From assembly GCA_965203275.1 (NCBI GenBank), contig OZ241865.1:1600001-1664000 (forward strand): a stretch of DNA of 64,000 nucleotides. The letters are read 5' to 3'. Positions 402 through 64,000 of this stretch are shown one piece after another. Position numbers and translations under genes: made by a program. Each line of letters starts with the position of its first letter. Within the stretch, counting starts at the first letter, position 1. The DNA is from Bdellovibrionales bacterium (GTDB lineage Bacteria; Bdellovibrionota; Bdellovibrionia; Bdellovibrionales; JAUICD01). Below the pieces are notes generated by a model that was not told the origin of the DNA, did no database searches, and worked only from the letters and a program-made list of their open reading frames with translations.

Positions 402-881
402 TTTTTCCTTAACATGCTACAGAGGAATGAAGAGATCCTCCCTACTCAAAGTGAACAGGCTTTCTAGGCGATGACCATTTTATCGACGTGAAGTAAACAT
501 CTTGTTTCCTTAACATGGTGTTAAGAAAAGAGGAGATCCTCCTTACTAAAAATAAACGGATTTTTGAGGCAATCAGCCTTTGATCGACGGCGATAAGCCG
601 TCGGGCTAACTGCCATTAGAAGGATATTTTCCTTAACATGGTGTTAAGAAACGAAGATATCCTCCCCTACTCAAAATGCATAATTTTTTGAGGCAATGAC
701 CATTTTGCCAATGGTGAAAGCCATTGCGGTCATTGCCCAAAAACATGCCAGAGGCATGATGCATTTTGAGTGAAAAAGACAGCTAGTTCAATTTTAGGGA
801 AACAGAGGCTGGTTTATTTTTAGTGAGACAAACGTGGTCATCGCCAGAAAGTGACCAGAGGTCAGTTCACTTTGAGTGAAA
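402..881 (+). mobile_element. Nested cluster of three family-A structured elements plus one orphan right end
   Basis: Three TTTCCTTAACATG heads; stem pairs 444-456/865-877, 545-557/812-824, 669-681/759-771. Confidence 0.8.
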
Positions 882-5280: not shown

Positions 5281-7020
5281 ATGACCATTATGAATGAAAA
5301 CAAAATATATACAATCTTAGCCTGTAGCCCCTGTAGCACTTATAGCCATAAAGAAGTTATACTGACCTTACTTAAAACAAAATCACTCTATTATAAAATC
5401 TCTCGGTTATTTTCTGTTCTAAATATCTATCAACAACAAAATCAAAAGATTTATTTATTAATGCCATTAACATTTTTAATGCTTGTATTTTTAGGGGGTA
5501 GTCTTAAAAATCATGCCATTGCATTTATTACTCCACAAGTGCAGGAACATCAAATATCAGTCGACCAAGAAACAATAACGAGTGACACACATCGAGATAT
5601 TGTTATGCATATTGCTGCTGATAGAGGTGATATTGATCAAGTAAGGCAACTGCTTGCCCAAGGCTTTAATCCAAATGATTTAAATATTAAAAATCAAACC
5701 CCTTTACATATAGCTGCTTATAGAGGGCATACTCATATTTTAGAAATTCTTTTAGATGCTGGAGCGGATATTAACCTTTCTGAGATCAGAGGCAATACAG
5801 CCCTTCATTATGTTGCTGGAAATTGCTACCCGACAGCTGTTGCAAAGCTTATTCAATCTCATGCTGATTTGAATCAAACAGATCATGTAGGTAGTACACC
5901 TTTTCATGTGGCTGCTGCTAGAGGTTGTACTGCGGTGGTTAAGATGTTCATAGATGCGGGTGTTGATGTTGATATAATCAATGATCAGCAATTTTATCGT
6001 ACGGCCTTGCATTATGCTGCTTATGGTTGTCATGTAGATACAGTTAAGACACTTATAGAATATGATGCAGATATTTATAAAACAGATCTTGTGGTTAATA
6101 ATCGAAATGTTGGCACAGCTTTGCATGTAGCCGCTGGCAGAAATTGTGTTGATGTTGTTAATATATTGATAGAGGCAGGTCTTCATCTGGATACACTCAA
6201 TAACTCTAGAAGTCGTGTTACCCCCTTACATCTTGCCGCTCAAAGTTGTCATATCAATACTTTTGAAGCACTGATCCGTGCTGGTGCAGATATGTATGCA
6301 AAAGACTTTCTTGGAAACACAGTTCTTTTCTTTGCTGTTGATAGAGGTTGCGGTAATATTGTCAATATGCTTATAGACAAAGGCTTTGATATCAATGCAC
6401 CTAATAATAATAACAATGTACCACTCCACTATGTTGCTACTAACTGTCAGGTTGACGTTGCTAAAATATTAATAGCATCAGGTGCAGATATGTATGTACC
6501 GGATAATATGGGCAATATAGCTATTCATCATACAGCAATAAATGATTGTGTTGAGTTGACAAAACTTTTTATTGAGAATGGCGTTGATCCTAATTATGTC
6601 AACAATCACAGGGAGACTCTTTTGATACATACAGCTACTGAGAATGCTGTAAAAATTGCAAGTTATTTAATAAATATAAAAACATCATTAGATATACAAA
6701 ATGTGAATGATAATACAGCTTTGCATATAGCTACTTATCATGGTCACTCTTTAATCGTCCGTTTATTATTGAGTGTATCTGCTAATTTTATGCTGAGAAA
6801 CAGAGATGGAAATACTCCCTTACATCTTGCTGCCTCTGGTGGCTACAAGGCTTCCTTAGGAGATCAAGACTTGATCAATTACCAGGATATTATTTATGAT
6901 CTATTAAACGCTGGTGCTGTAATGCAGTGGAACAATAGAGGAATAACACCTATTGACATGTTACACATTCAATTACGTGGTACTCAATTGGCACATGAGT
7001 TAGCAGTGGCTTGGTTTTAA
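5281..7020 (+). CDS. Ankyrin repeat protein (about 13 repeats, Cys-rich)
   Basis: Repeated TPLH/TALH.AA motifs; hydrophobic segment near residue 60; start uncertain. Confidence 0.9.
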   Translation: MTIMNENKIYTILACSPCSTYSHKEVILTLLKTKSLYYKISRLFSVLNIYQQQNQKIYLLMPLTFLMLVFLGGSLKNHAIAFITPQVQEHQISVDQETITSDTHRDIVMHIAADRGDIDQVRQLLAQGFNPNDLNIKNQTPLHIAAYRGHTHILEILLDAGADINLSEIRGNTALHYVAGNCYPTAVAKLIQSHADLNQTDHVGSTPFHVAAARGCTAVVKMFIDAGVDVDIINDQQFYRTALHYAAYGCHVDTVKTLIEYDADIYKTDLVVNNRNVGTALHVAAGRNCVDVVNILIEAGLHLDTLNNSRSRVTPLHLAAQSCHINTFEALIRAGADMYAKDFLGNTVLFFAVDRGCGNIVNMLIDKGFDINAPNNNNNVPLHYVATNCQVDVAKILIASGADMYVPDNMGNIAIHHTAINDCVELTKLFIENGVDPNYVNNHRETLLIHTATENAVKIASYLINIKTSLDIQNVNDNTALHIATYHGHSLIVRLLLSVSANFMLRNRDGNTPLHLAASGGYKASLGDQDLINYQDIIYDLLNAGAVMQWNNRGITPIDMLHIQLRGTQLAHELAVAWF

Positions 7021-24551: not shown

Positions 24552-24622
24552 AAGAGGCCAGTTTATCTTGAGTGAACCAGAGGCTAGTTCAATTTTAGGG
24601 AAATAGGCCACTTTTAGTGAAA
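24543..24622. repeat. Stack of family-A right ends overlapping the fabZ stop codon
   Basis: AGAGGCCAGTTTATCTTGAGTGAA, CCAGAGGCTAGTTCAATTTTAGGGAAA, GGCCACTTTTAGTGAAA. Confidence 0.75.
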
Positions 24623-37627: not shown

Positions 37628-37965
37628 TGTCTCACTAAAAGTAAACTGGCCTCTGGCCACTTTTGAGCTGGATCTTCAATTTATTTCTTAAATTTCAAAA
37701 TCATTGCCCTGAGACCAGACTCTTTCCCATTCATATCATTAGCTTTTAAAAAACTTCATCTTATTGGGCTTTGAATTTCTGTACTTACAAATAAAAAATC
37801 TGGATGCGAATGGTAATGGACAATGACCGCAAAGGCTTTCGCCGTCGATCAAAGGCTAACTGTCCAAAAGCAACCAGAGGTTGGTTTACTTTTAGTGAAA
37901 CAGAGGTGTGGCTCATTTTGAGTGAAAATGATGGCTAGTTCAATTTTAGGGAAACAGAGGCTGGG
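37628..37965. repeat. Family-A fragments and stacked right ends
   Basis: CACTAAAAGTAAACTGGCCTCTGGCCA near 37633; CAACCAGAGGTTGGTTTACTTTTAGTGAAA and further ends from about 37870. Confidence 0.7.
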
Positions 37966-39540: not shown

Positions 39541-39831
39541 ATGTTAAGAAATGAGGATATTCTCTCTACTAAAAATAAACGGATTTTTGAGGCAGTTAGC
39601 CTTTGATCGACGGCGGTAGCCGTCGGGCTAACTGACCAAAAGTAGCCAGAGGTCAGTTCACTTTGAGTGAACCAAAAGGAAATCTTTTTCCTTAACATGG
39701 TGTTAAGAGACGAGGAGATCCTCCTTACTCAAAGTGAACAGGCTTTTGAGACAATGACCATTTTGCCAATGGCGAAAGCCATTGCGGTCATTGTCCAAAA
39801 GTGACCAGAGGTCAGTTCACTTTGAGTGAAA
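39541..39831 (+). mobile_element. Two tandem family-A elements (first chimeric, second complete)
   Basis: Second: stem 39727-39739/39815-39827; first: ACTAAAAATAAAC left arm with GTTCACTTTGAGT right arm. Confidence 0.85.
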
Positions 39832-40744: not shown

Positions 40745-40793
40745 TACGTACGGGTAGATGAAAATAAACGAAATTAGATAATAAAAGGCCCGA
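40745..40793 (+). repeat. Family-C bipartite repeat, copy 1
   Basis: TACGTACGGGTAGA-N9-ACGAAATTAGATAATAAAAGGCCCGA. Confidence 0.8.
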
Positions 40794-40991
40794 GAAGAAA
40801 GGATTGAAAATAATACATACAACAAAAAGTATATATATAGGATATTATGTAATGGGCTTCTGACCGATCTCCTCAAAATTGACCTTTCAACTCTCTGAAA
40901 AGTTCTTGATTTGGTGAATGTACGAGATTAGAGAAGAAAATTCAAGGAGGGGAAATTTTGAGGGGGACAATGCACGTATCTCTGAAAAAAG

Positions 40992-41040
40992 TACGTACGG
41001 GTAGACGGACATCGACGAAATTAGATAATAAAAGGCCCGA
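40992..41040 (+). repeat. Family-C bipartite repeat, copy 2
   Basis: Same two boxes with a different 9-nt spacer. Confidence 0.8.
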
Positions 41041-42388: not shown

Positions 42389-44023
42389 ATGAAAAAATAT
42401 ATTTTTATTCTATTTATAATCTTGCTTGTTTCTAGTGATTCTCTATGGGCTTGTGCTGAAAGCCTTATGCCACCAACTCCAAAGCAAAATCAAAAAGTTA
42501 TTAGGAAGTCTTTAAATCTTAAATTAACAAAGCTAGTTAATAAAGATACAGGTTTAAGATTTATTAGCAGTGTTCTATGGTGGATGTCCCTGGGACTTGC
42601 TGGACTTATAGATCCAATAGATCCAAATGAAGAGTCTTTTAGAAGAGAGGAAAAAAGAAAGGATGAATTATGGAGACTCAATAATGACTTAATGAAGTTT
42701 GTTCGTGTCGGAGGCCCTACCGAGACTGTAAAGAAATTTCTAGAGGCCGGAGCTGACGTCAATTATGAAGGCCTAAAGGACAATACTATTTTATCAGAAG
42801 CTATTTATGGAGGCCATGTTGAGATTGTAAAGCTATTGCTAGAAAACGGAGCTGAAGTTAATTATCAAAGCTACCACAATGGCAATACGCCTTTAATATT
42901 AGCTAGTCATGAAGGTAAGACCGAGATTGTAAAGTTATTGCTAGAGTTTGGAGCTTTCGTCAATCTTCAAAACAAAAAAGGCGAGACGGCTTTAATAAAT
43001 GCTAGTCGTGGTAAGACCAAGCTTATTGTAAAGCTTTTGCTAGCGGCCGGAGCTAACGTCGATCATCAAAACAAAGATAGCGAGACAGCTTTAATAATAG
43101 CAAGTCGTGAAGGTAAGACCAAGATTGTAAAGCTTTTGCTAGCGGCCAGAGCTAACGTCAATCATCAAAAAAAAGATGGCGAGACAGCTTTAATAATAGC
43201 AAGTCGTAAAGGTAAGATAGAGGTTGTAAAGCTATTGCTAGAAAAGGGTGCTAAAGTCAATCATCCAAACAAAAAAGGCGAGACGGCTTTATCAGAAGCT
43301 AGTTATGGAGGCCATGCTGAGATTGTAAAAACATTGCTAGATGCCGGAGCTGACGTCAATTATCCAGACAAATATGGCAATACAGCTTTAACAATAGCAA
43401 GTCGTAAAGATTATATTGAAATTGTAAAGCTATTGCTAGATGCCGGAGCTAACGTCGATCATCAAACTAAAAAAGGCGAGACGGCTTTAATTAAAGCAAT
43501 TAGGGAACGTTCTACAACAGGTTATATTGAGACTGTAAAGCTATTGCTAGCAGCCGGAGCTGACGTCGATCTTCGAAAGAAAGGTGGCTACCAGGATGGC
43601 TGGACGCCTTTAATGCTAGCTGTTACAGGTGCTGGTAGAGGCTTCATTGAAAATAGTGAGATGGCAAAGACATTGCTAGAGAACAAAGCTGACGTCAGTC
43701 TTTCAGTCAATGGCTATACTGCTTTAATGAGTGCTAGCTATAACGGGTTTGTTAATATTGTAAAGTTATTGCTAGATGCCGGAGCTAACGTCAATGATCA
43801 AGACAAATATGGCCGGACGGCTTTAATAATGCTGGCATCTAATTCACGTAATTATGATTATATTGTAAGGATTGCAAAGATATTGCTAGATGCCGGAGCT
43901 GACGTCAATCATCGAAACAACGAAGGGTATACGGTTTTACGGTATCTTATGGAGAAGGAATATTTCTATGAAGATAGCCCTGCTGTATTGTTCTTGCGAA
44001 AGAACGGAGCTCAATATTTTTAG
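42389..44023 (+). CDS. Secreted ankyrin repeat protein with highly similar 99-bp units
   Basis: Signal peptide; repeated G.TAL..AS..G...IVKLLL.AGA.V. Confidence 0.92.
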   Translation: MKKYIFILFIILLVSSDSLWACAESLMPPTPKQNQKVIRKSLNLKLTKLVNKDTGLRFISSVLWWMSLGLAGLIDPIDPNEESFRREEKRKDELWRLNNDLMKFVRVGGPTETVKKFLEAGADVNYEGLKDNTILSEAIYGGHVEIVKLLLENGAEVNYQSYHNGNTPLILASHEGKTEIVKLLLEFGAFVNLQNKKGETALINASRGKTKLIVKLLLAAGANVDHQNKDSETALIIASREGKTKIVKLLLAARANVNHQKKDGETALIIASRKGKIEVVKLLLEKGAKVNHPNKKGETALSEASYGGHAEIVKTLLDAGADVNYPDKYGNTALTIASRKDYIEIVKLLLDAGANVDHQTKKGETALIKAIRERSTTGYIETVKLLLAAGADVDLRKKGGYQDGWTPLMLAVTGAGRGFIENSEMAKTLLENKADVSLSVNGYTALMSASYNGFVNIVKLLLDAGANVNDQDKYGRTALIMLASNSRNYDYIVRIAKILLDAGADVNHRNNEGYTVLRYLMEKEYFYEDSPAVLFLRKNGAQYF

Positions 44024-49341: not shown

Positions 49342-50838
49342 TTACAAAGCAATCAAAGGGAGATTATCTCCCATTTCATTAGCTTGATCCCCACGATGAT
49401 CTGTAGCTCCTAAATCTAAGCCTAACTGTCCAGTAGCATTGCTTCCCCAACATTTGACTTGACCCTTGCCCTGTGCAACATGTTCTAAAGTGACACAAGT
49501 GTGTTCTTCCCCTATAGCTATGGATCGTGTGATGAAACCTGCTCCTAAATCAATAGCTGACAAAGCTACTACACTTTCATCACTTTGATCTCCCCAATAA
49601 TTTGTATGACCTAGTCCAAGTTGACCTTGATTGTTTTTACCCCAACACTTTAAAATATGATTATCTAAAGCAACGCAGGCATGGTAAGGCCCTGCTGCTA
49701 ATTTTTTTACACTTCTTCCCTCACCTAATGGAATGGCTAAAAGATGTTCTCCCATCTCATAAGGATCATCCCCATGATAAATTAAATTGGACTCACTTAA
49801 TAAATGATTGATACCCCAGCATTTCACTTGATCATTATCCAAAGTAGCACAAGTATAGCCGTCCCCTGCTACAACACTCTTCACTGTCCGACCCTCTCCT
49901 AAGTTCACAGCTAAAAGATGATCCCCCATTTCATCAGGACTATCTCCATAAGACCTTTTGTTGCCTAATCCTAATTGACCTAAATTGTTAATGCCCCAAC
50001 ATTTAAGATGATCATTATCTAAGATAGCACAGGTATGATTCTTACCTGCTGTAATGGCTTTAGCTAAACGATTCTGACCTAAATCAACATAAGGAAGTTG
50101 GTCCCCCATTTCATAAGGATCGTCTCCTCTTGTGTTAATATCTCCTAAACCAAGTTGACCATAATAATTATCACCCCAGCATTTGATACCACCATCATCT
50201 AAAAGAACACACGTATAATTATAGCTTGCAACAATGGCCCTAGCTATCCGTCCCTCCCCTAAATCTACAGTTGAGAGATGATCTCCCATTTCCTCTTCGA
50301 TTTCATCATCAGTACTTAGGTCATCGCTCTCATCCCCTCGATGCTCCACGTCTCCTAAACCTAATTGACCAAAATCATTACCTCCCCAACATTTCACATT
50401 ATATGTATCTAAAATAGCACAGGTATGCTTTTGCCCTGCTGCAATAGCTCTAGCAGTGCGGCCTAAGCCTAAATCTACAAATTCTAAAGGTGGGTCATTA
50501 CGAGGTTCTATATCCCCTAAGCCTAACTGACCAAAATCATTATCTCCCCAACACTTTACCTGACCATTGCCTAAAATAACACAGGTATGATTTAAGCCTA
50601 CAGCTATCATCCTTGCAGCATCAGGATTGCTTACATCAATGCCTTCATCTTGTTGCGGTTGCAGGAAGGTTTTTGCAGTAGAAGTGCTATGAATCCTTTG
50701 CTTTTTTACCTTTCCATCATCAATTGTATGTACTAAGTCAGGTCGCTTTGTTTCACAGTTTTGAAAACCAACGATTAAAAAAATCACACTAACAGATAAA
50801 ACAATAATTCTTTTTCTTTGATCTTGGTTTGATTTCAT
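49342..50838 (-). CDS. RCC1-repeat lipoprotein
   Basis: IVGFQNCE; repeated HTC.IL....VKCWG.N..GQLGLG. Confidence 0.9.
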   Translation of the reverse strand: MKSNQDQRKRIIVLSVSVIFLIVGFQNCETKRPDLVHTIDDGKVKKQRIHSTSTAKTFLQPQQDEGIDVSNPDAARMIAVGLNHTCVILGNGQVKCWGDNDFGQLGLGDIEPRNDPPLEFVDLGLGRTARAIAAGQKHTCAILDTYNVKCWGGNDFGQLGLGDVEHRGDESDDLSTDDEIEEEMGDHLSTVDLGEGRIARAIVASYNYTCVLLDDGGIKCWGDNYYGQLGLGDINTRGDDPYEMGDQLPYVDLGQNRLAKAITAGKNHTCAILDNDHLKCWGINNLGQLGLGNKRSYGDSPDEMGDHLLAVNLGEGRTVKSVVAGDGYTCATLDNDQVKCWGINHLLSESNLIYHGDDPYEMGEHLLAIPLGEGRSVKKLAAGPYHACVALDNHILKCWGKNNQGQLGLGHTNYWGDQSDESVVALSAIDLGAGFITRSIAIGEEHTCVTLEHVAQGKGQVKCWGSNATGQLGLDLGATDHRGDQANEMGDNLPLIAL

Positions 50839-51804: not shown

Positions 51805-51851
51805 GGACCTATTATTGTCTAATTTCGTTGCTTTGCATCTACCCGTACGTA
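51805..51851 (-). repeat. Family-C bipartite repeat, copy 3
   Basis: Reverse complement TACGTACGGGTAGA-TGCAAAGCA-ACGAAATTAGACAATAATAGGTCC. Confidence 0.75.
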
Positions 51852-51860
51852 CTTTATTTG

Positions 51861-52160
51861 CACTAAAAGTGAACTGTTTCCCTCAATCTATTTCACTCAA
51901 AATGGTCAAGCTTTTGAGGCGGTTAGCCTTTGATCGACGGCGGTAGCCGTCGGGCTAACTATTAGAAGGATGTTTTCCTTAACATGTAGTCAAAAAACGA
52001 AGATATCCTCTTTACTAAAAGTAAACGGACTTTTGAGGCATTGCTCTTTTTAGACAGCGTATAGCTGTCAGAGCAATGCCCAAAAGTAGCCAGAGGCTAG
52101 TTTACTTTTAGTGAAACAGAGGCATGATGCATTTTGAGTGAAATGTTAAGGAAAAAGTTC
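51861..52160 (+). mobile_element. Family-A cluster: complete inner element between outer halves, plus an inverted head
   Basis: Inner stem 52014-52026/52100-52112; extra right end starting CAGAGG at 52117. Confidence 0.85.
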
Positions 52161-52213
52161 TTTTTGATGCCGGGTTGCCAGATCCCAGATCCCAGATCCC
52201 ACCCGGATAAACA
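52161..52213 (-). repeat. Family-B GC-rich repeat
   Basis: Reverse complement TGTTTATCCGGGT-(GGGATCT)x3-GGCAACCCGGCATCAAAAA. Confidence 0.75.
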
Positions 52214-58438: not shown

Positions 58439-60466
58439 TTATTTATACTCTACTATATTTTTTTGTATTTCACCTTCAATAGACCTTAAAAGCCCTTTAA
58501 CTGCATCTAATAAATCTCGGTTAGAAATAGTACCTCCTTGCAATGTGATGGCAAGGCCTCCTAGGTAGCTTTTATCCTGAATAAATTGTCTGATAGATCT
58601 GAGATGAGGAAAATATTTTTTGAGAGAAGAAAATTGAAAAAACACATTATGAGAGATTGCATTATAGACAATGTGCAAAGGTATATCTTTGACTTCCTGC
58701 TTGCTTTTTTCTTTTGTATTTTGCATAGAGTTTTTTTGATTGCTCATCACTTGAGAGATAGAACCTTCACCAGTCACAATGTTGTGTTGATAATTCTTAG
58801 CAGACACTCCCATATCAGATAGAGATTGGACATAACGATATTTATTTCTCACTCTTTTATTTATGTAGATTAAACCATGTTTGTAAAAACTTGTTTTTTT
58901 AAAACTATCTTTTAATTGAAGTTGAACAGGCTTTCTTGACTGCGGAATAATACCTGACTCTCTAAGTGCATCTTGAATCTCTTTAATATATGAAGCTTCG
59001 TTAATACTATGATAATGTAGTTGTTCTAAAACCCTTAGATCACATTGTTGGTCGTCGTCAAATTTTCTCATATAGAGATTGTCTATTGGAGTTATAGAAA
59101 AAGGGAAATACCTAGCCCCTCGACCAATCAGCTGGGCTTCTCTCATGGTGGTTTTATTCATTTTTTTTATGCTTTCATAGCAACGTACAATATCAAATAA
59201 ATTAAGAACATCCCATCCCTCGTTGAGTTTTTCCACTGCAAAAATAGCTCTTATGACATTATTTTTATCTTCTAATGTATTAAGCAATATTTGTAGATGT
59301 TCTTTTTCTAAATCTTTATTAACAGATAAACAGTGTTTTTCTTGAAACTCTTTACGTAATCTTTTTGCTAATTGATAGTGATTGATTTGATAATTCTTGA
59401 AAAAATCAAAAGCTTTTTGAATCAAATGAATTTTGGACTTTCTTTGGATCCTTTCTATATCTTTCGGTTCTAATTCATCTATCATTTTATGAAAGTTCAT
59501 TTTATTTTCTTTAGATTGGGCGATAGTTTTTTCTGCTTTAAAGAGAATCACTGGTTTAAGATGGATGCGGTGTTCTTGAGCTATATTTTGCTTGTATTGA
59601 CTTAAAATAATAGCTTGCAGTATGCGGTCCTTTTGTTCTAAGTCTGTTTGTACAATACACACATCTTTAGAGTAGCCATCTTCATAAAAATTTTTGAGAT
59701 CATATCTATATAAAATTTTATTGCGATATTTATTGATAATATTTTCATCATTATAATTTAACGTGGCCGTAAACTCTAATAATAAATTTTCTGCATTTTG
59801 GTTGAAAATTTTTTCTATAGTGTTTTCCCATGAAGGTTTTCTCTGATCTTCAAGGTCCATTTGAGACGGGGTATGAGTGGTTTTAGTGCTGAAGTGATGG
59901 GCTTCATCAGCTAAAAGCACTATCTTTTTATTTTTAAAGTCTTGAAAGGTCAGGGCATTTTCTTTTTCTTCTTTGAGGTCAGTGTGTAACTTTTGAATAG
60001 TGGTAAAACAAATATTGATATTTTTGTCATTGACTCCCTCAAAGTTATTTACCAATGAGGTGTGAATTCTCTGATCACCTATAGAGATATCTTCTTTAAA
60101 AAGGTACTTAGAAGATGATGGATTCAAAAAGTTGCTTTTTGTTTTTTCTAAAATAGTGGTGGAGTCTACAAAAAATAAAAAATTCCTATAGCCGTTTTTA
60201 TAGAGCTTAAGAATAAGTCCAGCCATTATAAGTGTTTTTCCGCTACCTGTGGCCATATTAAAAAGCAAATGTAATGATTTGTTTTTTTGATGGCTTTCTA
60301 AATGATGGATAAAATAAGCAAAAGCTTCTTCTTGATAAGGACGTAAAGGGAAGCGAGGGTTTAGGTTATTTTTTATATAAGATGGAACGTTTATATTTAG
60401 ATGTTTGTGTTTCTTAAGTGTATCAAGTTCTTCATATAAAAACTGTTCATTCATTATTATCTCCAT
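58439..60466 (-). CDS. res: Type III restriction enzyme Res subunit, probably C-terminally truncated
   Basis: MATGSGKT, LADEAHH, EFTAT, LNEGWDV, QLIGRGAR; no nuclease motif recognised. Confidence 0.85.
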   Translation of the reverse strand: MEIIMNEQFLYEELDTLKKHKHLNINVPSYIKNNLNPRFPLRPYQEEAFAYFIHHLESHQKNKSLHLLFNMATGSGKTLIMAGLILKLYKNGYRNFLFFVDSTTILEKTKSNFLNPSSSKYLFKEDISIGDQRIHTSLVNNFEGVNDKNINICFTTIQKLHTDLKEEKENALTFQDFKNKKIVLLADEAHHFSTKTTHTPSQMDLEDQRKPSWENTIEKIFNQNAENLLLEFTATLNYNDENIINKYRNKILYRYDLKNFYEDGYSKDVCIVQTDLEQKDRILQAIILSQYKQNIAQEHRIHLKPVILFKAEKTIAQSKENKMNFHKMIDELEPKDIERIQRKSKIHLIQKAFDFFKNYQINHYQLAKRLRKEFQEKHCLSVNKDLEKEHLQILLNTLEDKNNVIRAIFAVEKLNEGWDVLNLFDIVRCYESIKKMNKTTMREAQLIGRGARYFPFSITPIDNLYMRKFDDDQQCDLRVLEQLHYHSINEASYIKEIQDALRESGIIPQSRKPVQLQLKDSFKKTSFYKHGLIYINKRVRNKYRYVQSLSDMGVSAKNYQHNIVTGEGSISQVMSNQKNSMQNTKEKSKQEVKDIPLHIVYNAISHNVFFQFSSLKKYFPHLRSIRQFIQDKSYLGGLAITLQGGTISNRDLLDAVKGLLRSIEGEIQKNIVEYK

Positions 60467-60531
60467 TTGATTTTTGTTTAATATGCTTAAGTGTGTTTGA
60501 TATCTATTGTGATTTTAACTTGAAATAATCT

Positions 60532-62523
60532 TTAGTTTTCATTATTTTCGTCATCATCGTCTTCTGTGTCATCTTGTATTTGAAAGAAGCTTTTGTTAAG
60601 TGTTTTATCTTCTTCACTGACTTGAAAGTCCTCATCTTCTATTTCTGAAAGATGAACATAAAGTTGATTTTTGTTAAGCAGTTCCATTAATAACTTTTTT
60701 TGTTCTTTTATGCCTTGCCCCTTCCCTACTTGAATAAAATCCTTTATAGCTTCTTCTGGCCTTTTATGATTGACATACCAGTTTAAAAAAGAGTTTTTAG
60801 AGATGTCTTTCCATAAACCTAAAAGTTCATCAGTAGACTTTGCGTCTTGAATTTTATCGATATAAGTTGCGTTGTACTTCATCAACTGGCAAGAAATAAA
60901 ATCACCTTTTTGGCTTTTTTTAATTGTGTGTAATACTCGTGGAATAGTGACAGTGTTGATGTAATCCATTTGTTCACAAAGAATAAACTTTCTATCCCCT
61001 TGATCTTCTAAATTAAGTTCTAAAACAGCTTCTGCTGTTGTACCAGAACCTGCAAAAAAATCCAAAATTATATCATTATGAGTTGTTGTGATTCGAATAA
61101 TATCTTTTATTAAATGTTTTGATTTTGGATAGCTGAAAATATTATTTTTATTAAATATTTCTTTTAAAATCTTTGTTCCATGAGATGAAGCATCGTAACG
61201 TGAATCCATCCAGATTGTCTTGGGCCTCTGACCTTCTTTTATTCTATCTTTTAATTGAACAATAAAATTATGAGATTTGTTTTTTTTAATTTTGATTTCA
61301 TTGTTTTTAACAGCTTCTTTAAACCTTTCCTGTGATTGTCGCCAGACCCTTTTATTTCCATCTGAATCTAATGGAATAATTTCTGTTGCTCCTTTGCTTT
61401 TTTTCAAACTAATATCACCTGTATTTTCATTATAAAAAATAGAATAAAATAAATTCGGTCGATCATCAGGTGTGGAATTTGAGCCACCCCTTCTAAAGGG
61501 AGACCACCTATAACTAGAAACTTCGTCTTTTTCCTTAAAAGAGTTTTTTTGATCTTCTGTTAAAGGTAAGGAATGTATGGAAGCTAGTTCTTTTTCTTTA
61601 GCATATACAAGAAAAAACTCAGAAGATGTAGCAAAAAACTTTGAATCACTCCTCCCACCCGGATTGGTTTGTACAGAAATAATACCAATTCTATTTTCTC
61701 TTGAAAAAATTTCATCTGCAAGGACACCAAGATATAAGAGTTCTTCATGATCTATTGCAATGACTATAATCCCATTATCAGAGAGCAGTTCCTTTGCAAT
61801 ATCTAATCTGTTTTTCATAAAAGTTAGCCAGTGGGAATGATTAAATTCATTATTATATAAAAATGTGTTAGCATCTCCTTTTGTATTAAAAGGTGGATCG
61901 ATATAAATAAGTTTTATCTTGTTGTGAAACTGACTTTTAAGTGTATGAAGTGTAGAAAGATTATTACCTTTGATTATCAAGTTTTCTGTGATGATCTCAT
62001 TGTCATCTCTTTGTATTTCTTTTACTTTTTTAGTAGCGGAAGGTGTATGTCTTTTCCAATAAGTTAAAACCTTAGGATCAAAAAATCTATTGATCTCGTC
62101 TTCTGCTAAAGTTTCATTAAAAAATATTTCTCTTTGATTTTTTGTGTCTTCTTTGGTCTGCCCTCCTTCTAAAACACAGTCTTTATAGGGCCAGACAAGT
62201 GATATATCTTTTGTTGCTTTAAAAGGTCTATCACCTAATTTGAGTCCGATTTTGTTTCTAAATCGAGTATAAGAGTTAGATAAAAAGTTTTTATCAGACA
62301 TATAATCAATAAAAGCATTGGTATTAAAAACCAAGCTATCAGATACTTTGTTGAAGAACTTAGACTTAACTTGATGATCTTGCAGTAAAAGTGCAATAAG
62401 TTGATGGTCCATTTTCCAAGCTTTATCTATAATAGCTTTTTGAAGTAAATGGTTATTTTTGTCTAATAAACGAGAATCTCTTTTGAGTAAACCTACAAGC
62501 CTATTGTGAAAATTTTGCTCCAT
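60532..62523 (-). CDS. mod: Type III RM adenine methyltransferase Mod subunit
   Basis: IYIDPPF followed by DFFAGSGTT (beta class); adjacent to res. Confidence 0.92.
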   Translation of the reverse strand: MEQNFHNRLVGLLKRDSRLLDKNNHLLQKAIIDKAWKMDHQLIALLLQDHQVKSKFFNKVSDSLVFNTNAFIDYMSDKNFLSNSYTRFRNKIGLKLGDRPFKATKDISLVWPYKDCVLEGGQTKEDTKNQREIFFNETLAEDEINRFFDPKVLTYWKRHTPSATKKVKEIQRDDNEIITENLIIKGNNLSTLHTLKSQFHNKIKLIYIDPPFNTKGDANTFLYNNEFNHSHWLTFMKNRLDIAKELLSDNGIIVIAIDHEELLYLGVLADEIFSRENRIGIISVQTNPGGRSDSKFFATSSEFFLVYAKEKELASIHSLPLTEDQKNSFKEKDEVSSYRWSPFRRGGSNSTPDDRPNLFYSIFYNENTGDISLKKSKGATEIIPLDSDGNKRVWRQSQERFKEAVKNNEIKIKKNKSHNFIVQLKDRIKEGQRPKTIWMDSRYDASSHGTKILKEIFNKNNIFSYPKSKHLIKDIIRITTTHNDIILDFFAGSGTTAEAVLELNLEDQGDRKFILCEQMDYINTVTIPRVLHTIKKSQKGDFISCQLMKYNATYIDKIQDAKSTDELLGLWKDISKNSFLNWYVNHKRPEEAIKDFIQVGKGQGIKEQKKLLMELLNKNQLYVHLSEIEDEDFQVSEEDKTLNKSFFQIQDDTEDDDDENNEN

Positions 62524-62611: not shown

Positions 62612-63026
62612 GTTCACTAAAAGTGGTCTAGCCTCTGTTTCACTCAAAATAAATCATGCCTCTGGCATGTTTTCTGGCAGTTAGCCTTTGATCGACGGCG
62701 TGAGCCAAAAGGTGTAAGAAAGAACTTTTTCCTTAACATGGTGTTAAATGAGAAATGGATCCTCATTACTAAAAGTGGTCAGGCTTTCTAGGCAATGACC
62801 ATTTTATCGACGGCGAGAGCCGTCGTGGGCATCGCTCAGGGTGTAAGAAGGAACTTTTTCCTTAACATGTGGTCAAGAGACGAGGAGATCCTTCTTCCTA
62901 AAATTGAACAAGCTTTTGAGGTAGCTAGCCTTTGATCGACGACGAAAGTCGTCGGGCTGGCTACCCAAAAGTAGCCAGAGGCTAGTTCAATTTTAGGGAA
63001 ACCGAGGCTAGACCACTTTTAGTGAG
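62612..63026 (+). mobile_element. Family-A cluster: inverted right ends followed by a nested pair
   Basis: Outer stem 62768-62780/63011-63023; inner stem 62897-62909/62985-62997; heads at 62722 and 62851. Confidence 0.85.
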
Positions 63027-64000
63027 TTAGTGTAAAAGGTCTTCTGGTGTGGTTTTCAAAGACCGTGCTGTGCGTATTAAAGTGCTATATTTAATAAATG
63101 GACTCTGATATTGGCGATTAAAGCTTTTTTCAATATAAATAGGCAAAGGGTTACCATAAGCTTTTTGCATTTTTCTCTTAATGCGACGTCTCAGTCGATT
63201 TAAAAACTTCTTAATGCTGTCAGGATGTACCTTCTCTCTTTTTATTTGAAGAGGATTTATGAGAGATGTGATATCTTCATTGCCAACTATTTGTGAAATA
63301 GGTACTCCCACAATAACAGATAATTTAAAAAGGGTCACAAGGAAAATATCCGGTGTATTTTGCCAGCCAATTATCTTTTTTACAAATTTGCTGTGCAATT
63401 GTGCTGTATTTAGAATTTGAGGTATACGATTTTTAGTGAGGGCTTCTACTTTGTTTTTTAATAAAGTTTCTTTTTCTATAGTAGACTCTTTAACATTTTC
63501 AAAAATATCAAAATTAATTTTCTCAAATTGTTCTATGTCATTTTCTAAATTCTTTAAGAGGCTAGATACATCTACGTGTAACGCCTTAGTTAGTTTGAAA
63601 AAAAGATAATAGGAATTTATTGTGCCTGTCTCAAGCAGGTCTTTTAATTCAGCATGTCTGATACCAATGGCCCTAGATAATTGTTTCACAGATAAATCAG
63701 ATGAAATCATTTGTTGTTTCAAATAATAAACAAAAAGTCTTTTAGCTTTTTCTATATAGTCATTTGATAATTGCTTTGTTTTAAAACGATTGGCATGAAC
63801 TAAGCTTTCGATATCACTTTGACCAATAAGTTGCCACAATTTTATATCTAAAGCGTGTGCAATTTTTAGAAGTACTGTCAATGAAACATTTAAACTCAAA
63901 CCATGATTGGCACGATAAGATGGAATGACTTTGCGTATGGATTTTCTAATAGAAAACCCTTGATTTTGAAGTGATTCAAAGATATCATGTATGCGAGTTC
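63027..64000 (-). CDS. Protein with several XRE-like HTH repeats (5' end outside window)
   Basis: Repeated LLKIAHALDI / FKLTKALHV / LFKLSVIVGV / LIRTARSLKT; frame is open to the window edge. Confidence 0.65.
   Translation of the reverse strand, partial: TRIHDIFESLQNQGFSIRKSIRKVIPSYRANHGLSLNVSLTVLLKIAHALDIKLWQLIGQSDIESLVHANRFKTKQLSNDYIEKAKRLFVYYLKQQMISSDLSVKQLSRAIGIRHAELKDLLETGTINSYYLFFKLTKALHVDVSSLLKNLENDIEQFEKINFDIFENVKESTIEKETLLKNKVEALTKNRIPQILNTAQLHSKFVKKIIGWQNTPDIFLVTLFKLSVIVGVPISQIVGNEDITSLINPLQIKREKVHPDSIKKFLNRLRRRIKRKMQKAYGNPLPIYIEKSFNRQYQSPFIKYSTLIRTARSLKTTPEDLLH

Follow-up and report, generated by a model that had tools for sequence, protein, structure and literature searches.

The 3' ends of hairpin-repeat copies most often join other copies at a three-base loop in a Bdellovibrionales genome

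When the 3' end of a copy of an abundant hairpin repeat is joined to another copy, the joint lies most often at the CC-AGA-GG loop of the element's side hairpin. We examined this repeat in a window of 64,000 nucleotides (the whole stretch of DNA analysed), in the genome to which the window belongs (G000: 2.57 Mb, a single contig, 35% G+C, 90% complete), in a sister genome of the same genus (G001) and in further relatives (G002–G004). The loop joint is not a reciprocal crossover: few left remnants end at the loop. Its right junction is fixed and its left junction is variable, and in addition to this hot spot the junctions display nesting, a short tail, two registers and spread between paralogues. 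Since the joint is one-sided and imprecise, it is likely to result from copying primed at a break in the loop and not from a clean site-specific crossover. We estimate the probability of the reading that we prefer, target-primed copy-in at accessible loops followed by homology-guided spread, at about 0.5.

Results

The hairpin repeat and its distribution

The ~143-nt repeat makes up 6.6% of G000, where nhmmer returned 1,428 matches, 756 of which are full length. A 143-column consensus was built from 672 full copies (hereafter cores), and the element folds as a three-way junction with z of about -8 to -11 for intact copies. Compensatory change was found in 24 of the 42 base pairs, and all three tested stems were matched in 541 of 611 parsed copies despite many arm types, the inner stem being mismatched in 14 of the 611. 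The repeat is thus a multicopy intergenic palindrome with a one-strand fold, a feature of REP/REPIN-RAYT systems. Its stem-tip loops are GNNA rather than GNRA (197 of 547 four-base loops violate GNRA), which fits DNA better than RNA, and single stem mismatches comprise 114 G-T versus 16 A-C; these counts, like the 90-case arm comparison and the 308-end tail logo below, derive from a set of 1,245 ends found with an initial pattern that missed one subtype, the corrected set holding 1,349.

No match to Rfam 15 at gathering score was found within the 64-kb window, and repeat orientation in G000 shows no bias relative to neighbouring genes; none was seen relative to replication either, in a genome whose weak GC skew limits that comparison. 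Among 40 relatives, the repeat is present in G001 and in small contigs of G004, and an exact scan of the contig collection for the junction pattern returned one other record only, a Bdellovibrionales MAG. The repeat-bearing small contigs (G004:C11 and C4) were probably misbinned from the window's genus, because they carry a second rplN and have about 90% nucleotide identity to G001. In one locus of G001 (L005, 1986-2265) the 5' part of the element occurs as five tandem 56-nt copies. We found no description in the literature of the hairpin repeat, nor of mobility of the four-helix-bundle cassette considered below. The window also holds ankyrin-repeat and RCC1-repeat genes of a kind typical of host-associated bacteria (42389-44023, 5281-7020 and 49342-50838) and a type III restriction-modification pair (58439-62523).

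A hot spot of joints at the loop

Within the window, CAGAGG starts directly behind an element end of the form G[T/G]GAA[A/C] at positions 803, 24578, 37901, 37955 and 52117, a CGAGG start lies likewise behind such an end at 63003, and an inverted case occupies 62632-62637 (Table 1). All of these junctions had been listed in the original prediction and were confirmed from the sequence. Across the genome, 1-2 bases followed by AGAGG stand behind 171 of 1,349 element 3' ends, compared with 29 of 11,715 non-element G[GT]GA[AG] words used as a control, and an element fragment of some kind follows 690 of the 1,349 ends.

Table 1. Parts of the repeat at the locus around position 52117 and elsewhere in the window
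Feature	Position in window	Strand	Remark
Full element copy, columns 1-143	51977..52116	+	Fixed 3' end GTGAAA
Outer stem of full copy	52014-52026 / 52100-52112	+	Covariation
Side hairpin TAGCC-AGA-GGCTA of full copy	52087-52099	+	Loop AGA at 52092-52094
Right remnant of another copy, columns 118-143, loop-joined	52117..52143	+	Arm type unlike that of full copy
Left remnant of older copy, to about column 104	51895..51960	+	Ends about 13 columns before loop
16-nt 5' leader of inserted copy	51961..51976	+	Recurs elsewhere with same left breakpoint
Second hot spot: 3' end joined to bottom-strand loop of another copy's 5' hairpin	52144..52157	-	
Heptamer (GGGATCY-type) arm, leader of inverted copy	52166..52210	-	Kind that flanks four-helix-bundle genes
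Two inverted right-end remnants, outer edge of cluster	51861..51908	-	
Nested cluster: full copy with two left and three right remnants	407..881	+	
Stack of right remnants, loop joint at 24578	24553..24622	+	
Stack, loop joints in both registers	37874..37961	+	CAGAGG at 37901 and 37955
Chimeric side hairpin TAGCC-AGA-GGTCA	39643..39655	+	Outer stem of that copy mismatched too
Inverted loop-start remnant	62612..62637	-	
Loop-start remnant, one substitution (CCGAGG)	63003..63027	+	Complements left remnant at 62768
Second element E2, 153 nt, precise at CA in columns 107-108	37664..37818	-	CA on both sides

It had been proposed that a genome-wide map of fragment boundaries should be searched for a sharp peak, and such a peak was obtained. 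Columns 116-122, at the CC-AGA-GG loop, take 232 of 481 internal sense-strand fragment starts (26 expected if uniform), 137 of them at column 118 alone, in a 12-mer mapping that is blind to starts beyond about column 132 and with a fragment parser that splits copies at indel columns. When identical junctions were collapsed, 142 of 333 starts were at the loop. Further peaks are formed by 105 starts at the 5' hairpin's loop on the bottom strand and 88 at column 1, with minor peaks of 9-24 each at columns 32, 59-62, 67, 75, 95-96, 101, 125 and 129; the two largest peaks are both three-base hairpin loops. The predicted invariance of the CC-AGA-GG loop holds in G000 (98-100%) but not in G001, where the loop is variable.

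CA[AG]A words also occur in the stems, at column 108 (451 of 672 cores), column 42 (267) and column 107 (216), and carry no clean joints, whereas 150 clean joints were found at loop column 118 and 11 at column 125. Sequence alone therefore does not pick the loop, and position counts. The loop is used in G001 as well, 9 of 80 element ends being loop joints in a sample of 400 kb of 2.94 Mb chosen around known matches. In the same biased sample, a 14-nt fold-back insertion is present at AGAGG in 19 of 61 loops, as one to three tandem units (L135, L140, L145 and others); this unit is absent from G000.

Joint sequences and insertions outside the loop

The sequence between element end and GG in the 232 loop joints is ACAGA (130), AATGAC (22), CCAGA (20), CCAAAC (11), ACAAA (8), ACAAAC (6) or one of several rarer forms, and the logo of 308 element ends with unique flanks reads A-C-A-A-A. 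A loop joint carries 2-6 nt of the donor's ACAAAC-like tail and occurs in two registers, one between CC and AGA with the tail AC, the other between AGA and GG with a 6-nt tail, as in the window, where a 6-nt tail and then GG occupy 37927-37934. Together, the joint forms and the unique-flank logo indicate a donor end of G(AAAC)1-2 that joins in either register.

Insertions into genes with known empty sequence allowed both junctions to be placed. The four-helix-bundle gene, an independent target, has four positions of right joints and two of left joints, and one pair of its right joints has the same 3-nt register offset as the loop. In paralogous genes we identified 24 distinct insertion sites in 49 copies, 17 sense and 7 antisense, of which 4 are clean CA joints, 4 have other short sequences and 16 have longer tails, although paralogue divergence inflates some of those tails and one row is an artefact. 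With clean CA at 4 of 24 gene sites and two registers at the loop, no fixed cleavage dinucleotide was found. Relative to the empty alleles in paralogous genes, the insertions are accompanied by target deletions of 1, 4, 29-30 and 49 nt or by target duplications of 67-103 nt, and duplications overall are about 70-120 nt. A search for target duplications around all cores gave 107 versus 51 in shuffles, a difference swamped by repeat-to-repeat matches, and contigs of the sequencing run break at the repeats and carry no empty-allele information.

An insertion into tRNA-Pro has the same right junction in two settings, G001, where 19 nt are deleted, and G004:C11, where approximately 120 nt are duplicated. 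We considered whether the element is a tRNA-Pro intron and rejected this, because the tRNA is either duplicated intact or short of 19 nt. Other insertions that delete or duplicate the 3' part of a tRNA gene were noted at L146:13900-14100, L102:19300-19880 and L133:8600-9230. An element end abuts the terminal CRISPR repeat in three of the four arrays of G000, and none of the 42 spacers matches the element. A dispersed repeat with the motif TACGTACGGGTAG is also a landing site, and occurs in the window at 40746-40795 and 40995-41040 on the forward strand and at 51839-51852 on the reverse strand.

One-sidedness and nesting

Left breakpoints are nearly absent from the loop: 4 of 267 lie in columns 114-123, and their peaks are at columns 103, 83, 74-75, 106, 92 and 63. 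Inspection by eye of 935 side-arm contexts found three in which the consensus breaks off at CC and a new 5' end follows. Each of the 85 head-to-tail joints has an element end in front of it, and none has a split loop there. A crossover, or a clean nick and religation, predicts left remnants that end at CC, and their near-absence leaves both without support. Reciprocal joints at the loop are nearly absent, and insertions come with loss or gain of target sequence.

The contrast is provided within the same genome by the second element, E2, which is present in more than 12 repeat copies of differing types, flanked by CA on each side and with precise ends. Its joints are reciprocal and its targets neither lose nor gain sequence, as in conservative site-specific recombination. 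E2 also forms a tandem array of nine units (G000:C1:467085-468466) and lies at other CA sites in G001. It bears the signature of two-sided site-specific insertion, and the loop joints lack such a signature. In its shared CA core, its precise ends on both sides and its tandem array, E2 resembles IS110-type or other site-specific elements with a 2-nt core. No IS110 transposase was found in G000 or, with PF02371, in G001. The IS110-type description fits E2 and not the loop junction.

The fragments that start at the loop are often the right part of an older copy that holds a newer insertion. The arm behind the loop joint is of the upstream copy's type in 4 of 90 cases (shuffle mean 8), a result that excludes slipped-strand origin of the stacked arms. 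Of 59 distinct simple left-full-right triplets, 20 have a left remnant that is fully complementary to the loop arm (shuffle mean 7.3, maximum 18 in 5,000), and 3 show such complementarity between loop arm and inserted copy; an example of the former, read from the sequence, is the remnant at 803-828, which begins at the loop and complements the second left remnant of its cluster. The other 39 triplets, among them the locus at 52117, do not match their left remnant, and for 64 of 130 cores bearing a loop arm the nearest 130 nt hold no left remnant. Many arms must therefore have travelled with the donor or been shuffled later.

Enzymes and other mobile units

Profile searches of G000 gave no match to Y1_Tnp (PF01797), Y2_Tnp (with a control below cut-off), Rep_1 (with a silent control), Rep_trans or Relaxase, and across these profiles no HUH nuclease was found in this 90% complete genome. 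A single Y1 match in G001 looks like an ordinary IS200 TnpA, and no element motif was seen by eye in 1.6 kb around its gene. RVT_1 had no match in G000, and tblastn and phmmer searches with the reverse transcriptases (RTs) of three relatives also returned nothing, not even a remnant. In G001, two RTs were identified, one of a group II intron and one of a retron. Neither SbcD nor an AEP primase-polymerase (DNA_primase_S) was found in G000. Integron attC sites have an invariant AAC/GTT core and are accompanied by an integron integrase. The outer-stem triplets of the present element vary, and the highest scores of the two tyrosine recombinases are with Xer models, though below cut-off; the repeat does not qualify as an attC site.

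A PF07282 match common to G000 and G001 was set aside, as in G000 its motifs, neighbours and array identify it as a Cas12-like CRISPR effector. This protein of 1,325 aa is encoded with cas1/cas2-like genes and a type V-A-like array (G000:C1:238802-245700, L158), and its C-terminal 615 aa have no NCBIfam match; three further CRISPR arrays are present in G000. An apparent A-to-N excess was gone at event level (A 2.4, C 5.5, G 4.0 and T 1.2 per 1,000), so that the adenine-specific mutagenesis of diversity-generating retroelements (DGRs) is not seen. The remaining candidates, all weak, are the four-helix-bundle cassette, the Rpn nucleases and the group II intron RT of G001.

The four-helix-bundle gene (TIGR02436, presumably an Avd-like family) is a multicopy 101-aa gene, with an intact copy at G000:C1:1094149-1094454 and eight more. 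A hairpin covers its ribosome-binding site, heptamers form its arms, and all nine intact copies stand 49-103 nt upstream of the end of a sense element, the 5' end being next. Heptamer words were found upstream of 163 of 672 cores versus downstream of 65. The co-occurrence of repeat and gene at first appeared perfect and then weakened, as the main contigs of G004 have many of these genes and no repeat. In other families of the order (L018, L021 and L023), four-helix-bundle genes are arranged as divergent inverted pairs, each with a palindrome at its centre and arrays of hexamers or heptamers on its outer sides.

Other mobile units of G000 include an element that we take to be IS1634-like (G000:C1:696589-697970 and 1855612-1857582), one copy of which lies in a repeat with a target duplication of about 55 nt, IS256-like copies, and multicopy units with a small serine recombinase, several of them broken (seven frames, for example 1034771-1035511).

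Discussion

Our analyses suggest that incoming repeat copies land with their 3' end mainly at the loop. Under target-primed copy-in, a break near the unpaired loop, with the nick presumably on the bottom strand, would leave a 3' end that could form a few base pairs with the ACAAAC-like tail of the donor and be extended through the element. The second junction would then form by template switch at variable distance, giving a deletion or a duplication, and a donor with a CAGAGG 3' flank would home to roughly 1,000 homologous loops and so inflate the peak. A fixed 3' junction with a tail and a variable 5' junction are the features of target-primed retroelements. Sections of one account of R2 elements describe an asymmetry of first and second strand that parallels the loop-joint pattern, and R2 and its kin share with the repeat the fixed 3' and variable 5' junctions, the target deletion or duplication and the use of an upstream flank for the second junction (PMC6895275). 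R2 and SINEs differ in being eukaryotic, R2 is protein-coding, and G000 yielded no RT.

Several results count against copy-in. Neither an RT nor a remnant of one is present in G000 although the repeat copies are young, and the genome has no AEP primase-polymerase or SbcD match. The unmatched triplets and the loop-arm cores with no nearby left remnant weigh in the same direction, and the 150 clean CA joints among the 232 would also be expected from one-ended HUH transfer. The GNNA loops lean towards a DNA template, and no adenine-specific mutagenesis was seen.

A founder effect is an unlikely explanation, though one to be taken seriously. It holds that one or a few loop junctions arose by accident and were spread by gene conversion or by template switching at short homologies, the loop itself not being specially nicked. 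Identical junctions have indeed spread, as one junction with its 60-nt leader is common to four Rpn paralogues, one of which is only about 75% like the reference and has a different inner module. Leaders are tied to left breakpoints, and both leaders and tails are site-specific. Similarly, a foreign 36-nt hairpin insert that replaces 5 nt at columns 53/59, at the junction of the repeat, recurs in 18 copies of G000 with several inner-stem types. The identical junctions in diverged paralogues and the ties between leader and breakpoint indicate spread by homology, so that copies are not independent events, and the height of the peak exaggerates how many nicking events took place at the loop. The Rpn nucleases, of which G000 has 57 matches, could be a source of non-specific nicks, and RpnA is described as making 3' ends proposed to prime template switches (PMC5350276); G003, however, has 20 Rpn matches and no repeat. 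The founder effect is further opposed by the variety of arms, 90 cases containing 42 combinations of donor and target arm although homology on the right side of the joint is only 7-9 nt, by loop arms that belong to the target above chance, and by a loop that has been struck in two ways in G001.

We regard a one-ended HUH-like enzyme as unlikely too. Such an enzyme would nick folded single-stranded DNA between C and A at the loop and at the element's 3' end and join the two, and host repair would make the other junction. The 150 clean GAA[AC]CAGAGG joints are what it would produce, and the GNNA loops and the excess of G-T over A-C mismatches point to one folded strand. In addition, work on TnpA-REP indicates that a dinucleotide is all this protein requires and that it can recombine different sites in vitro (PMC3333891). 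Against this stand the absence of Y1, Y2, Rep_trans and relaxase matches from G000, the IS200-like nature of the Y1 protein in G001, the 20 of 24 gene sites that are not clean CA joints, and duplications of about 100 nt, which require copying. The original prediction, that the loop is the strand-transfer point of a site-specific enzyme, is at odds with the scarcity of left joints there, the two registers, the few clean CA joints in genes and the lack of an HUH protein.

A more specific proposal is that the repeat is a bacterial SINE-like element, a 143-nt structured template that would be copied by target-primed synthesis into nicked hairpin loops by a nicking and copying machine tied to the Avd-like cassette and the heptamer arms, which would serve several transposase-less mini-elements of the genus. 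We consider this quite unlikely. DGRs combine Avd with an RT, and the multicopy TIGR02436 gene near element ends resembles them, but G000 differs in having no RT and no A-to-N signature.

Conservative site-specific recombination, a plain homologous crossover within the 7-mer, or duplication of the final 26 nt by strand slippage is very improbable and as a group largely refuted for the stacks, since reciprocal joints are nearly absent, the upstream arm type is rarely matched, a 7-mer crossover cannot place a loop-start arm behind a complete 3' end, and E2 demonstrates what real two-sided CA-core insertion looks like in G000. It may explain the chimeric hairpins, a rare class of which the predicted example in the window was confirmed: side arms are mismatched in 17 of 611 copies, 11 of which have a mismatched outer stem too. 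Recombination within the shared 7-mer, which had been offered as the alternative to an enzyme, thus largely fails for the stacks and may hold for these hairpins. They could reflect exchange within the 7-mer or, presumably, a stack that collapsed between its two CAGAGG words, which lie 26 nt apart; they are no evidence of an enzyme.

Among known systems, REP, BIME and REPIN-RAYT sequences resemble the repeat as abundant, clustered, intergenic, non-coding hairpins with a strand-specific fold and variable junctions, whose mover may be missing from the genome (PMC3333891, PMC3116915). The repeat differs in its 143-nt three-way junction with covarying stems and no Y1 gene, and in its one-sided joints with an A/C tail, its target deletions and long duplications, and its nesting into its own loop. 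No RAYT or Y1 gene flanked by the repeat was found in G000. The repeat works like a self-nesting repeat of the REP or SDR type with a retro-like asymmetry of its junctions, and falls outside REP-RAYT membership. Cyanobacterial SDRs, reportedly described by Elhai and colleagues in 2008, combine compensatory structure, self-nested insertion and association with heptamer arrays with an unknown mover. SDRs are about 20 bp (PMC2884548), whereas the G000 element has a branched fold and six to seven times that length.

Outside REP-RAYT, little is established about the way in which small bacterial repeats multiply when they lack a transposase. The repeat described here offers over a thousand junctions, many of which can be compared with known empty sites, and these argue against a clean recombinase. 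They also define the substrate for an enzyme hunt, namely the folded element, the ACAAAC tail and the CC-AGA-GG loop. Target-primed copying, if true, would be a bacterial counterpart of SINE insertion, and homology-guided spread, if true, would warn against reading every junction peak in a repeat family as the cut site of an enzyme.
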